A stretch of 27,588 nt of DNA from the IMG/VR virus record IMGVR_UViG_3300033067_000363, positions 1 to 27,588 of that record, one strand, 5' to 3'. A program made the translations under genes and the position numbers. Below are positions 20,992 through 27,588 of the stretch, piece by piece (position 1 is the stretch's first letter; every line of letters starts with the position of its first letter). The notes under the pieces were generated by a model that saw nothing but the letters and a program-made list of their open reading frames with translations, was not told the DNA's origin and made no database searches. The stretch comes from a virus (lineage: Duplodnaviria > Caudoviricetes).

Positions 20992-21288
20992 TTAACCAGC
21001 TAGATTTTCATCTTCTGGTTTGTCTGCTAGTTTCTCCGCTACTGCACCTGCAGCTTTACGACCAGAGATACCACCTAATGTACCAACGCCCATAAAGGCA
21101 ATGGCTTTTAGAATTTCGAGGAATATTGCATCGATTGGTGCTAATACTGTAGATTGGTCTTCGAAGGCAATAGCCCACATAACACCCATTGCAATTAAAA
21201 ATACCATTGAAGTGATTGCTTTAACTACGAAAGCCCATACACGTACTTCAATTTGATCGGCAGTCATGCCTTTGTAACTATCTAACAT
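20992..21288 (-). CDS. Two-TM membrane protein, holin-like
   Basis: 98 aa, two hydrophobic segments, charged C-terminus. Confidence 0.55.
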   Translation of the reverse strand: MLDSYKGMTADQIEVRVWAFVVKAITSMVFLIAMGVMWAIAFEDQSTVLAPIDAIFLEILKAIAFMGVGTLGGISGRKAAGAVAEKLADKPEDENLAG

Positions 21289-21289
21289 A

Positions 21290-21616
21290 TTATTCCTTGT
21301 TTTTAGCTTTATTAATATCTTTGAGAAGCTGTTCGTTATATTTAATCATATCTTCAAGCTTTTCAACTTTAGTTGTCCATTGTTTATCACGGACTTCAAT
21401 CTTATGATTGTTTCTATCGGTAGTAATATACATATCTACTAATGGAGGTACTACAAGCAGTAAAGCTATTACGGCGGTAGCTGCTGCAATCATAGAAACT
21501 ATTGACGAGTTATTAGCTTTATCCATATTGCCCATATTTCTGCTAGGAACACTATTATTAGAAACACTGTAACCAGTTCCAGCTTTATTTGATTTTGTAG
21601 TTGCTCTCGTAGCCAT
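21290..21616 (-). CDS. Single-TM membrane protein with C-terminal coiled coil (start uncertain: 21616 or 21535)
   Basis: MIAAATAVIALLLVVPPLV hydrophobic segment; overlaps the upstream gene. Confidence 0.6.
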   Translation of the reverse strand: MATRATTKSNKAGTGYSVSNNSVPSRNMGNMDKANNSSIVSMIAAATAVIALLLVVPPLVDMYITTDRNNHKIEVRDKQWTTKVEKLEDMIKYNEQLLKDINKAKNKE

Positions 21617-22227
21617 CGCTCACCAGCTGCTTTCTTACGTTTTTCTATTTGAGCTAATTCTTGTTGCTCTTGGATAATACCTACTCGCTTAACAACCTTA
21701 GTGTATAAATCACCTAGTTCAGCTGGACTTTGATATACCATAGTTTCACGGATGGTTACCTGAAGCTTTTGTATCTCGATCATTGCATATTCAATATCAA
21801 TAGCAGAACTCATAAGTTCTTCATAACCTTGAGACTCTAGGGACTTAGTTTCAGCTTCGGCTAATTTAGCTTGCAACTGAGACATACAACTGAAGAATAT
21901 CTTTAGTTGTTCTATCAAACCTATCACAATAGATAGTTCATCTAATTGAACATCTTCTGCAGGTTTCTTTTTATTTTGTTTTGTAGGTTTAGTTGATAGA
22001 TTATCTAAGGCTAAATCTGCTATCTTCGGAAGTTCTTTCTTTTTCTTAGGGAACATCTTTTCCCATATGAATTTCCAGATACTGGTTACTTCTTTCGAAA
22101 TACCTTTTACTTCATCGAATGTTTTCTTAGCTTTGAGTACTGTACCTTTGTACTCTTTGTATAATTCACAGCCCTGTTGAATGGCTGATACTGCTGCATT
22201 TGCTGCAGCTAGGATAGCTAATGGCAT
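21499..22227 (-). CDS. Coiled-coil protein with C-terminal TM helix
   Basis: 242-aa ORF; LVTVFLIIVFLAEIWAIWI C-terminal anchor. Confidence 0.75.
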   Translation of the reverse strand: MPLAILAAANAAVSAIQQGCELYKEYKGTVLKAKKTFDEVKGISKEVTSIWKFIWEKMFPKKKKELPKIADLALDNLSTKPTKQNKKKPAEDVQLDELSIVIGLIEQLKIFFSCMSQLQAKLAEAETKSLESQGYEELMSSAIDIEYAMIEIQKLQVTIRETMVYQSPAELGDLYTKVVKRVGIIQEQQELAQIEKRKKAAGERWLREQLQNQIKLELVTVFLIIVFLAEIWAIWIKLITRQ

Positions 22228-22247: not shown

Positions 22248-22325
22248 TGGTCCGTAATGAGTGATTTGAACACCCGATATCTCGGCCCCAAACCGAGTGA
22301 CTTAACCAGACTAGCCTAATTACGG
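22248..22325 (-). tRNA. tRNA-Pro(TGG)
   Basis: CCGTAAT/ATTACGG acceptor, CTCGG-TTTGGGG-CCGAG anticodon arm, TTCAAAT T-loop, encoded CCA. Confidence 0.92.
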
Positions 22326-22333
22326 ATATTAAT

Positions 22334-22374
22334 TGGTGGACAATCTTCGGCTGACCGTAGCCTATACATCGCCC
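22334..22374 (-). ncRNA. 41-nt tRNA-Ala-like minihelix with CCA end
   Basis: GGGCGAT/ATTGTCC-A-CCA acceptor-like stem with G3.U70; internal GGCT/AGCC hairpin; spaced like the neighbouring tRNAs. Confidence 0.6.
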
Positions 22375-22379
22375 ATATT

Positions 22380-22471
22380 TGGCGGAAAGCAGAGGAGTCG
22401 AACCCCATCCCCGTTAAGAGAACCTAGTTTTCAAGGCTAGTCGCAGGACCAACCCCGCTGCATTACTTTCC
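22380..22471 (-). tRNA. tRNA-Ser(TGA), atypical 8/4 fold
   Basis: GGAAAGTA/TGCTTTCC-G-CCA, loop CTTGAAA, long variable arm, GGGG-TTCGACT-CCTC T-arm. Confidence 0.85.
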
Positions 22472-22478
22472 ATATTAT

Positions 22479-22572
22479 TGGCAGAAGATACAGGATTTGA
22501 ACCTGTGGGCGGCTGTTACACCACCGTCTGTTTAGCAAACAGATGCCATAAACCTGACTCGACCAATCTTCT
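22479..22572 (-). tRNA. tRNA-Ser(GCT)
   Basis: AGAAGAT/ATCTTCT-G-CCA, TCTGT-TTGCTAA-ACAGA, long variable arm. Confidence 0.93.
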
Positions 22573-22981
22573 ATTTATTCTCTATTAAGTACTGTAAAGC
22601 TAATTTTAATAGTTCAGGGTCATCATTAAACTTACCTAAACCTGTATTACACTTAACACATAGTAGCCCTCGTACCTTACCTGTTAAATGGCAATGGTCT
22701 ACATTTGGCTTATCCATTGGAAGCAAGCAAATTTTGCATAAACCAATTTGTGTTTCAAGCATTGAAGTAAATTCTTCGAAACTTAGACCATACTTTTCTT
22801 TTAAATGTTTCTCATAGGTCCAAGGTGTAGCTTTATATCTACCATCCTTGTAGCCTTTTCTTTGATTACTTGTTTTACAACTTTTGCACTTACTATTTCT
22901 ACCGTCTTTGAATCCATTGTGAATAGAGAAACTTTCTAAATCTTTCTCTAAATGGCATTGCGTACAAATTTTAGTTGTCAT
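22571..22981 (-). CDS. Endonuclease VII-family (HNH-type) endonuclease inside the tRNA array
   Basis: KICTQC...CKSC...CKIC...VDHCHLTGKVRGLLCVKCNTGLGKFNDD; start placed at ATG 22981 because that aligns with the N-terminus of 187..627. Confidence 0.88.
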   Translation of the reverse strand: MTTKICTQCHLEKDLESFSIHNGFKDGRNSKCKSCKTSNQRKGYKDGRYKATPWTYEKHLKEKYGLSFEEFTSMLETQIGLCKICLLPMDKPNVDHCHLTGKVRGLLCVKCNTGLGKFNDDPELLKLALQYLIENK

Positions 22982-22982
22982 A

Positions 22983-23054
22983 TTAAATGCGAGGAATTTT
23001 CTCTGCGTATCCTGAGCCTTCATTTGAGATATCATCCCAACCTTCTTTATTCAT
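22983..23054 (-). CDS. 23-aa micro-ORF (MNKEGWDDISNEGSGYAEKIPRI)
   Basis: TAGGAG 5 nt before ATG; stop lies 1 nt before the endonuclease ATG. Confidence 0.45.
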   Translation of the reverse strand: MNKEGWDDISNEGSGYAEKIPRI

Positions 23055-23073
23055 ATTTGCTCCTATGTATATT

Positions 23074-23149
23074 TGGCGAACCAAGAAGGACTTGAACCTC
23101 CAACCCTCGAATTTGGAATTCGATGCTCTACCAGTTGAGCTATTGGAAC
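23074..23149 (-). tRNA. tRNA-Trp(CCA)
   Basis: TCGAA-TTCCAAA-TTCGA anticodon arm, canonical D and T arms, G73-CCA; two U.U mismatches in the acceptor. Confidence 0.88.
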
Positions 23150-23153
23150 GAAT

Positions 23154-23227
23154 TGGCAGAGGATGCAAGAATCGAACTTACGACAACGGGATCAAAACCC
23201 GTGGTTATACCATTTAACTAATCCCCA
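23154..23227 (-). tRNA. tRNA-Gln(TTG)
   Basis: ACGGG-TTTTGAT-CCCGT, TTCGATT T-loop, G73-CCA. Confidence 0.9.
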
Positions 23228-23233
23228 ATAAAC

Positions 23234-23312
23234 TGGCTCCGCACTCTGGAATCGAACCAGACTAATCATTGCTTAACAGGCAAGTCCTTGCACCATGCTT
23301 GAATTCTACGGA
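23234..23312 (-). tRNA. tRNA-Asn(GTT), atypical D-arm
   Basis: TTGC-CTGTTAA-GCAA, TCTGG-TTCGATT-CCAGA, TCCGTA/TGCGGA-G-CCA. Confidence 0.8.
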
Positions 23313-23318
23313 ATAATT

Positions 23319-23404
23319 TGGTGGATGCCCTAGGTAACGCTCCTAGCGAGTGCATAGACAAAGGTTTTACAGACCCTCCCGCCTCTTTAACGGAATATGC
23401 ATCC
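23319..23404 (-). tRNA. tRNA-Tyr(GTA), non-canonical T-loop
   Basis: AGGGT-CTGTAAA-ACCTT, long variable region, CTAGG-AGCGTTA-CCTAG, GGATGC/GCATCC-A-CCA. Confidence 0.82.
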
Positions 23405-23409
23405 AAATT

Positions 23410-23484
23410 TGGTACAGCATGGGAGAATCGAACTCCCCTTACAAGGATGAAAACCTTGTGTCCTAACCGATAGACGAATGCTGC
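23410..23484 (-). tRNA. tRNA-Glu(TTC)
   Basis: CAAGG-TTTTCAT-CCTTG, canonical arms, CCA. Confidence 0.93.
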
Positions 23485-23494
23485 TTAATTAATT

Positions 23495-23635
23495 GAGAAG
23501 ATTATAGCACAGAATCCAACGGATTAAATAGGCTATGAACAAATACTTGCAATCTTCTCGAAACTGATGTTCAATGTACACCTCTAACGACTTAATGTTT
23601 CTTGTGGGGCTTGCCGACATACCATTACATTGAAC
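23495..23635 (-). ncRNA. Two tandem ~65-nt stem-closed structured elements in a tRNA-array spacer
   Basis: GTTCAATGTA/TACATTGAAC (10 bp) and GAGAAGATT/AATCTTCTC (9 bp) terminal stems. Confidence 0.4.
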
Positions 23636-23641
23636 TAAAAC

Positions 23642-23717
23642 TGGTACAGAAAACTGGACTTGAACCAGTGGCCTAACGCTTATCAAGCGTTTGCTCTACC
23701 AACTGAGCTATTTCTGC
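23642..23717 (-). tRNA. tRNA-Ile(GAT)
   Basis: AACGC-TTGATAA-GCGTT, canonical arms, CCA. Confidence 0.95.
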
Positions 23718-23724
23718 ATTAATT

Positions 23725-23807
23725 TGGTGTCTCAGGTCAGACTCGAACTGACACGCACTAGGCACTGGTTTCTAAGACCAGCGTGGCTACCATTACACCA
23801 CCGAGAC
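23725..23807 (-). tRNA. tRNA-Leu(TAG)
   Basis: CTGGT-CTTAGAA-ACCAG, variable arm, A73-CCA. Confidence 0.94.
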
Positions 23808-23808
23808 T

Positions 23809-23892
23809 TGGTGCGAGAGGTGGGATTTGAACCCACAAGCCGTTAGGCGGCAGATTTTAAGTCTGCTGTGTATACCATTCCACCACTCTCGC
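23809..23892 (-). tRNA. tRNA-Leu(TAA)
   Basis: GCAGA-CTTAAAA-TCTGC, variable arm, A73-CCA. Confidence 0.95.
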
Positions 23893-23898
23893 TAAATT

Positions 23899-23983
23899 TG
23901 GTGCTGAAGGTGAGACTCGAACTCACGTAAGATTTCTCTGACGGCTTACAAAACCGTTGCAATTGCCGCTATGCGACTTCAGC
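23899..23983 (-). tRNA. tRNA-Thr(TGT) with long variable arm
   Basis: GCTGAAG/CTTCAGC-A-CCA, ACGGT-TTTGTAA-GCCGT, 14-nt variable region. Confidence 0.88.
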
Positions 23984-23997
23984 TAATCCTAGAGTAT

Positions 23998-24205
23998 ATT
24001 CGTATCTACAGAGGACTAGGCTCCATGTAGAACTAGTAGACTTCTGACTTTCGGTGTCTACAACCTCAGTAACGTTAGATTAAGTTACGTAGCTTCTGCT
24101 ATTGCCTTTTGTGCCGTTTGCTATTTGCGAACAGCGAATGTATTACAGTAGGTATTTAAAGCTCGGTTATTACTAACGGAAATCTTTAACGTTTATCCTA
24201 CCGTA
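23998..24205 (-). ncRNA. Candidate structured RNA(s) between tRNA-Met and tRNA-Thr
   Basis: 62-nt rod closed by TACGGTAGG/CCTACTGTA, followed by four further hairpins. Confidence 0.45.
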
Positions 24206-24209
24206 TATC

Positions 24210-24286
24210 TGGAAGCAATGGGACGGATTCGAACCGCCGATTTCCAGCTTATGAGGCTGGCGAGATGACCACTTCTCTACCCTGCT
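24210..24286 (-). tRNA. tRNA-Met(CAT) (Met vs fMet vs Ile2 unresolved)
   Basis: CCAGC-CTCATAA-GCTGG, GGCGG-TTCGAAT-CCGTC, CCA; one extra base in the 3' acceptor strand. Confidence 0.85.
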
Positions 24287-27258: not shown

Positions 27259-27588
27259 AGATTTAAACCCTGTATATATTAAATTGGATGATGACGATGA
27301 CGATAATTCTAACAATCTGCTTGCTAATCAGTATTTACCTTATTTCCAAAGTACACAAGTTAATCGTTGCATCAAAGCATTTATTGACGAAGGCGTAAGA
27401 GAAGCTAAATACTATCGGAATCTTATTCATACTATTGATAGTCTAAGTGAAGATGATATTTTATGGTTAAGTATTAATACTTACGGAGGTCATTTAGATG
27501 GAGCTATTGCAATTATCAATGCAATTCAAAACACCAGTGCTAATGTACATTGTCATATCGATGGTATCGCTGCTAGTGCAGGTAGCCT
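27233..27588 (+). CDS. ClpP-like protease, 3'-truncated by the window edge (not in ORF track)
   Basis: AAGGAG RBS, ATG 27233; MRDKLKK...LSINTYGGHLDGAIAIINAI...IDGIAASAGS includes the ClpP catalytic-Ser motif. Confidence 0.88.
   Translation, partial: MRDKLKKFKDLNPVYIKLDDDDDDNSNNLLANQYLPYFQSTQVNRCIKAFIDEGVREAKYYRNLIHTIDSLSEDDILWLSINTYGGHLDGAIAIINAIQNTSANVHCHIDGIAASAGS

Follow-up and report, generated by a model that had tools for sequence, protein, structure and literature searches.

Why should a phage keep, among the genes of a tRNA array, a 41-nt unit that ends like an alanine tRNA yet lacks an anticodon? The window, that is, the whole stretch of 27,588 nucleotides analysed here, is a 27.6-kb piece of a tailed freshwater phage whose terminase shares 88% identity with its counterpart in Limnohabitans phage DC31. 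Its array holds 10 tRNAs called by ARAGORN and three read by eye (Ser-UGA, Tyr, and Asn). The features that bear on the question are as follows.

22248..24286, minus strand: phage tRNA array with 13 tRNAs, the mini-tRNA unit, and an inserted EndoVII-family nuclease gene
22571-23035, minus strand: EndoVII-family nuclease gene inserted in the array; the slot is empty of the nuclease in L006, L007, L009, and L012
22380..22471, minus strand: tRNA-Ser(UGA), upstream neighbour of the mini-tRNA, missed by default ARAGORN
22375..22379, minus strand: 5-nt AT-rich leader from tRNA-Ser(UGA) to the mini-tRNA; predicted RNase P leader (putative role in processing)
22334..22374, minus strand: 41-nt anticodon-less mini-tRNA unit with an alanine-type acceptor end (from sequence, fold, and simulation; kept in seven related contigs)
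22368..22374, minus strand: acceptor stem, 5' strand (positions 1-7, including G3 and G5; sequence, fold)
22349..22362, minus strand: inner 4-bp hairpin with a 6-nt loop (fold)
22338..22344, minus strand: acceptor stem, 3' strand (positions 66-72, including U68 and U70; sequence)
22334..22337, minus strand: discriminator A73 and encoded CCA, invariant in 6/6 distinct family sequences
22326..22333, minus strand: 8-nt AT spacer from the mini-tRNA to tRNA-Pro (position)
22248..22325, minus strand: tRNA-Pro(UGG), downstream neighbour of the mini-tRNA and last gene of the array

The minus-strand sequence of 22334-22374 is GGGCGATGTATAGGCTACGGTCAGCCGAAGATTGTCCACCA. The sequence, 7-bp stem, G3.U70 pair, A73, and encoded CCA that had been claimed in the preliminary description are exact. 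The stem is formed by G1-C72, G2-C71, G3.U70, C4-G69, G5.U68, A6-U67, and U7-A66, and thus contains beside G3.U70 a second wobble pair, G5.U68, on which that description was silent. RNA folding returned the 7-bp stem, followed by an internal loop and a hairpin of 4 bp, and left ACCA as an unpaired tail, with an energy of −15.0 kcal/mol (z of −2.55; 1 of 200 shuffles was equally good). The fold is therefore a single hairpin from which the D, anticodon, and T arms of the cloverleaf are absent, as had been proposed; set against a canonical tRNA-Ala, the unit has the acceptor stem with G3.U70, A73, and CCA and lacks the cloverleaf arms. Its inner hairpin is not a canonical T arm and is possibly a degenerate one. 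The inner 4-bp stem is identical in the relatives L008 and L010, with a different loop. When the whole window was simulated 500 times with a first-order Markov model, a form like the mini-tRNA appeared once, a count in which the array register was not yet required.

The spacers to tRNA-Ser(UGA) and tRNA-Pro measure exactly the 5 and 8 nt that had been stated, and no tRNA-Ala was found among the 10 ARAGORN and three eye-read tRNAs of the array, also as described. The expectation that standard tRNA finders would miss the unit was borne out in the window scan, since neither ARAGORN nor Rfam called it; RF00005 had no match at the mini-tRNA, and RF00023 and RF04321 had none in the window at E values up to 1. 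A promoter and terminator scan of the array gave no excess over shuffles (4 versus 5.4 and 2 versus 1.6). Among the RNA contigs listed, none spans the mini-tRNA, in a comparison of assembled contigs, where RNA ends are invisible. One RNA-library contig skips 46 letters at the mini-tRNA, and one unlabelled sequencing run, from which the window itself may derive, contains an exact copy of it together with the L007 variant.

The loci of related phages were retrieved through the small terminase and a neighbouring 242-aa gene, and 19 arrays were read gap by gap; three members of the mini-tRNA family had first been spotted by their 3' end, and all gaps were then read. The mini-tRNA is present in six of the 19 arrays, a 68-nt D-armless RNA with G3.U70 and A73 in three, a full tRNA-Ala(UGC) in one, and no alanine-type unit in nine, several of which are cut by contig ends. 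A pattern scan for the family gave eight hits. One of them (L153) matched the pattern outside any tRNA array and was dropped. The family thus consists of the window and seven contigs, with six distinct sequences of three types (40, 41, and 44 nt) that occupy three slots, Ser(UGA)-Pro, Asn-Ser(GCU), and Thr-Glu.

Across the six distinct sequences, 14/14 columns are invariant at the ends of the unit versus 4/30 in the middle, where identity falls to 6/26 and the inner loop differs in both length and sequence among the three types. Stem pair 6 switches from A-U to G-C within the family. The 44-nt type shows only 1 to 3 differences in 30 middle positions between phages whose TerL proteins are 60% and 88% identical to that of the window. 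On the terminase tree the mini-tRNA is patchy, occurring on distant branches with TerL identities of 60 to 95%. The mini-tRNA is therefore a selected and mobile unit of which the acceptor end is the conserved part, and we regard it with high confidence as a real, selected RNA gene.

Beyond these contigs the family itself did not extend. The exact 19-nt core pattern had no hits in IMG/VR, and blastn of the region, the mini-tRNA, and a 91-nt RNA of the clade against GenBank phages returned tRNA-Ser-type or chance matches only. A metagenome scan with 89 hits held no new member: 71 of the 89 were one repeated false anchor, and none of the 10 that followed a real tRNA had pairs 4-6 intact. As a separate observation, a relative carries a 26-nt CCA-ended hairpin that is not of alanine type between two tRNA-Ser genes (L011:155-195, plus strand).

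Units of the same architecture were nevertheless found in the arrays of unrelated phages. IMG/VR was scanned for short units running from GGG to TCCACCA that start no more than 12 nt after the end of a tRNA. This gave 107 loci, of which 63 follow a real tRNA without overlap; pairs 4-6 are intact in 33 of these 63 (21 end-types). Control patterns, run on 43 and 23 of the 64 IMG/VR parts, were paired far less often, with pairs 4-6 intact in 4/29 units with A or G at position 70 (p of 0.0005 against the G3.U70/A73 units) and in 2/17 units with U70 and a discriminator other than A73 (p of 0.003). For C70, the counts were 23/39 with A73 and 6/30 with another discriminator. Mini-units ending in ACCA are therefore real and widespread, and G3.U70 goes together with A73.

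Alanine is not the only identity among them. G3-C70/A73 mini-units are about as frequent in phage arrays as G3.U70 ones. Enrichment of the alanine type over G3-C70 is marginal (21 versus 12 end-types against a base rate of 16:27 in full tRNAs, p of about 0.04, with rows that are not independent). Anticodon-less G3-C70/A73/CCA units of 48 to 49 nt follow tRNA-Met in L270, L275, L290, L337, L353, L354, L368, L373, and L381, and further families of such units occur in L302 and L355 and in L351 and L364; mini-tRNAs of identities other than alanine thus exist. Several G3.U70 units share their array with a full tRNA-Ala. Hence the proposal of an alanine minihelix is partly supported: the unit of the window is conserved, lacks an anticodon, and carries the bacterial alanine identity set, but phage mini-tRNAs at large are not confined to the alanine type. 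The array search with covariation analysis that had been suggested recovered recurring, often well-paired units, but covariation within the window's own family is weak (15/500 shuffles reach the score, with few rows).

Of the roles considered, we tentatively favour that of a decoy: the mini-tRNA may be a conserved, gene-like tRNA mimic, likely processed and likely alanylated, that occupies defence enzymes acting on acceptor ends. Host RNase P and 3' trimming would release it from the array transcript, as they do the neighbouring tRNAs, and we consider such processing probable. The released RNA would be an 11- to 14-bp helix with ACCA, near the size of an acceptor plus T stem. Host AlaRS could then charge it with alanine, since G3.U70 and A73 need no anticodon; this step is somewhat less secure than processing, though still the likelier outcome. 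G3.U70 is described as the conserved determinant of alanine identity, and minihelices are substrates for charging (PMC9976931). Because no decoding is possible, the RNA would act as a competitor and spare working tRNAs from effectors, of which toxSAS/CapRel, GNAT acetyltransferases, and tail nucleases of the Cas12a3 type are examples.

Published observations point both ways on the decoy role. The toxSAS enzyme FaRel2 is reported to modify tRNA-mimicking minihelices and to read the acceptor stem, but it prefers stems with C2-G71 and G4-C69 (10.1101/2024.07.05.602228), pairs that the mini-tRNA lacks, which counts against the proposal. A truncated tRNA-Ala hairpin is reported to be cleaved by Cas12a3, but the truncated substrate is bound 62-fold more weakly than full tRNA (PMC12851939), which also counts against it. 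Within our own data, no defence system is linked to the mini-tRNA, and the related 91-nt RNA with A3-U70 in two clade members weighs against an alanine-only account. Moreover, the family keeps G5.U68 as strictly as G3.U70, although bacterial alanine identity does not rest on G5.U68; common descent can thus account for the wobble pairs in six sequences of three types. The patchy spread is typical of accessory genes and, with the changes of slot and the varied acceptor identities, fits an arms race. Since identities vary, with G3-C70 among them, decoys for different effectors fit better than one alanine-specific job.

The next explanation, which we consider unlikely, is that the unit is the relic of a shrinking tRNA-Ala-like gene, kept as processing punctuation in the polycistron or drifting near-neutrally. 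The clade offers a graded series from the full tRNA-Ala(UGC) of L019 to the 40- to 44-nt units, with the following intermediates.

L004:624-691, L006:4574-4641, and L009:3856-3923, plus strand: 68-nt D-armless RNA, located between tRNA-Asn and tRNA-Trp, with G3.U70, A73, and an irregular anticodon loop
G112:45392-45465, minus strand: 74-nt G3.U70 tRNA-like form, missed by ARAGORN
G010:47040-47130 (minus strand; the same as L652:9040-9130) and G111:25957-26047 (plus strand): 91-nt CCA-ended tRNA-like RNA, preceded by a lone tRNA-Met, with a non-canonical T-loop and the pair A3-U70

In L019, the tRNA-Ala(UGC) sits in the Thr-Glu slot where three other phages hold the mini-tRNA, with spacers resembling those of the 44-nt type, and for this reason descent from a tRNA-Ala-like gene is plausible. 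The 91-nt and 68-nt forms have arm sequences in common in alignment, and the last 16 nt of the 40-nt type (L008/L010) are the same as those of the 91-nt RNA of G010; the 91-nt RNA thus appears to be related to both the 68-nt form and the mini-tRNA. The alignment of the inner hairpin with the 68-nt forms is only suggestive of a degenerate T arm. The likeliest history may be that of a degenerating tRNA-like family in which the acceptor end was kept, perhaps with a remnant of the T arm, a picture that is suggestive and not statistically shown. The nine arrays without an alanine-type unit, several cut by contig ends, would also fit a relic. That arrays never hold two kinds of alanine-type unit is only suggestive of mutual exclusion, because the numbers are small and the phages are related.

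A full tRNA-Ala at the same slot in relatives, which would have spoken for a recent deletion, was not encountered: the same Ser(UGA)-Pro junction is present in five relatives as a bare 10- to 13-nt spacer, and so the mini-tRNA is not a fresh deletion of tRNA-Ala at its slot. This outcome for the Ser-Pro slot is qualified by the tRNA-Ala of L019 in the Thr-Glu slot. No decayed copy was found in any gap of the 19 arrays, the ends are fixed whereas the middles diverge, and the 44-nt type has hardly changed between the distant phages compared above. Nor is the unit needed as punctuation, since arrays without it keep the same neighbours with plain spacers.

The tRNA-anchored scan used on IMG/VR, applied to GTDB genomes, revealed a chromosomal counterpart. 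From 13 of 64 parts, 120 loci were obtained; 56 units follow a real tRNA, 26 of them are well paired, and 25 of these 26 are an alanine-type minihelix of 34 to 37 nt in an Ala/Ile/Val tRNA cluster. Of the 25 records, 23 are titled Saccharibacteria or Patescibacteria.

L482:1028-1063 (plus strand) and L498:1001-1036 (minus strand), with 23 further loci of the scan, and also G001:C1:77877-77912: Saccharibacteria minihelix with encoded CCA

In both loci scanned (2/2), the cluster lies downstream of 16S rRNA, and the minihelix accordingly looks more like housekeeping than anti-defence. Five of its 13 pairs covary, and 0/500 shuffles reach the score (nine equal-length copies of 23 aligned). When position 70 was left free, 12 of 101 genomes of the class matched, and all 10 true stems have U70 (10/10). 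The minihelix is patchy, present at 9/26 tRNA-Ala(UGC) loci in a set biased to the kin of the query. Its covariance model scores the phage mini-tRNA at 8 bits with E of 3, that is, without recognition, and it is therefore an analogue from another family. No description of this chromosomal minihelix was found in the literature searched.

These bacteria bear on a further role that the preliminary description had raised, in which the mini-tRNA would serve specifically to deliver alanine, outside the ribosome, to a tRNA-dependent transferase of the Fem/MurM or MprF type, for example altering the host envelope. An armless charged helix would suit such a task, by analogy to the non-proteinogenic tRNA-Gly of staphylococci, and FemAB-family genes are present in 5/5 of the minihelix-bearing Saccharibacteria first tested and in 11/12 of those in the class sample. 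Since these genes occur in 84/101 Saccharimonadia genomes regardless of the minihelix, the co-occurrence does not discriminate carriers. On the phage side the suggestion found no partner: the 82 proteins encoded by the window and by G007, its nearest relative, include no Fem, MprF, GNAT, or synthetase family, and among 421 ORFs no protein is common to all three mini-tRNA-bearing near-complete genomes and absent from six others. We rate the donor role as improbable, a little below a relic.

Less probable again is a tagless tmRNA-like RNA that would bind SmpB or EF-Tu and either block host trans-translation or free stalled chains untagged. The nearest natural precedent of the mini-tRNA is indeed the TLD-only (CDS-less) tmRNA of mycobacteriophage DS6A, which is likewise phage-encoded and anticodon-less with an alanine-accepting tRNA-like end, and a similar RNA is described as inhibiting tmRNA (PMC4131195 and PMC11915505). 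The DS6A RNA is, however, recognizably a tmRNA in these accounts, whereas the mini-tRNA has 41 nt and is without a canonical T-loop, a D-loop-like segment, or a match to the tmRNA model. In an unrelated phage, a 44-nt array unit (L188:832-875, plus strand) does match that model with 31.3 bits and E of 2.4e-9, below the gathering score of 47, and is by its sequence probably a very short tagless tmRNA head. No such match was obtained for the mini-tRNA of the window or for the three family loci L147, L150, and L154 (E up to 0.5 there). SmpB needs a canonical T-loop and a D-loop-like segment, and the unit of the window and these three loci lack both.

To the same slight degree, the unit could soak up host factors of the ordinary kind (AlaRS, EF-Tu, or the CCA-adding enzyme) and tilt translation to the phage. 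Its conserved part is what these factors read, and its helix of 11 to 14 bp has the length of the top half of a tRNA. ARAGORN found no tRNA-Ala in 3/3 near-complete genomes that bear the mini-tRNA, so a drain on AlaRS would hurt a phage that itself needs alanyl-tRNA. A chance hairpin or a DNA-level scar, such as an att site or a tRNA 3' end duplicated through nuclease action, for which one may cite the nuclease gene in the same array and a GTDB hit (L508) that is a hairpin beside a phage-type gene, is largely refuted and highly improbable given the 1/500 simulations, the unit's own complementary 5' strand, its presence in seven other contigs, and the control patterns.

With a decoy as the tentatively preferred role, the mini-tRNA can be set beside known RNAs. 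The synthetic tRNA-Ala minihelix or microhelix shares with it a short helix with G3.U70, A73, and CCA and no anticodon (PMC9976931); the mini-tRNA differs in being natural and genome-encoded, in its irregular inner hairpin, C4-G69, and G5.U68, and in that its charging is predicted. The armless mitochondrial tRNAs of nematodes and arachnids, down to 44 nt (PMC9976931), resemble it in length and hairpin shape, but they keep an anticodon arm and decode, whereas the phage unit has no recognizable anticodon stem, 7-nt loop, U33, or conserved anticodon. Allo-tRNAs with G3:U70, non-canonical and found in bacteria and phages, include some of alanine identity and some that are translation-inactive and near toxin-antitoxin genes, but they are full cloverleaves with an 8/4 or 9/3 acceptor branch (PMC5389517), and the mini-tRNA is a single hairpin. 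In PMC7609411, matching terms occur only in the references. Phage tRNAs that counter tRNA-targeting defences are, like the mini-tRNA, array genes with a proposed anti-immunity role; as presented, they replace cleaved host tRNAs in decoding (PMC11555353), whereas an anticodon-less unit could only be a decoy.

A survey of viral structured RNAs contains tRNA-like candidates with no mention of CCA or alanine minihelices in the text searched, and six of its supplementary files have no matching 3' motif, with three further files that may hold candidates (PMC10690425). No description of such mini-units was found in the literature searched, which did not cover subscription literature, including old work on stable small RNAs in T4 and T5.

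A broader proposal has about even odds, namely, that natural minihelix genes are an unrecognized class of 28- to 56-nt, anticodon-less, ACCA-ended RNAs that originated repeatedly both in the arrays of phages and in the tRNA operon that is linked to rRNA in Saccharibacteria, and whose alanine-type members, including that of the window, would be processed and charged in vivo for a non-decoding job as decoy or donor. Minihelices have so far been laboratory substrates and models of ancestral tRNA. A natural one, encoded in phages and in a bacterial lineage, would show that a gene can consist of just the top half of a tRNA. If the proposal is true, such RNAs would be the equivalent, in living organisms, of the synthetic minihelix that has long served to model primordial tRNA. 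Since tRNA finders and Rfam miss the mini-units, tRNA arrays are under-annotated. As tiny reagents, these units would allow us to ask whether phages counter toxSAS, GNAT toxins, and Cas12a3 by mimicry and not replacement, and whether alanine has a special carrier in Saccharibacteria.

Other elements were seen around the mini-tRNA and in related phages. The three genes between the array and the small terminase (window 20992-22227, minus strand; 242, 108, and 98 aa) are without a Pfam family and are found in some relatives, with no linkage to the mini-tRNA. Default ARAGORN and Rfam also miss tRNA-Asn(GUU) at 23234-23312 and tRNA-Tyr(GUA), which has a non-canonical T-loop, at 23319-23404 (both minus strand). 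Non-canonical tRNA-like RNAs occur in DC31 (PQ492658.1, about 46505-46600, plus strand), with two T-loop-like motifs, and in G114 after the tRNA-Arg at 27292, with a long insertion. The interval from tRNA-Ile to tRNA-Glu (23485-23641, minus strand) contains two long stem elements that lack CCA; L007 also has the first, and L004, L006, L007, L009, and L012 also have the second. Finally, tRNA-Met and tRNA-Thr are separated by 226 nt of non-coding sequence (23984-24209, minus strand), blocks of which are conserved in L006, L007, L009, and L010; one short hairpin of this sequence is found again in several further relatives, at different slots of the array.
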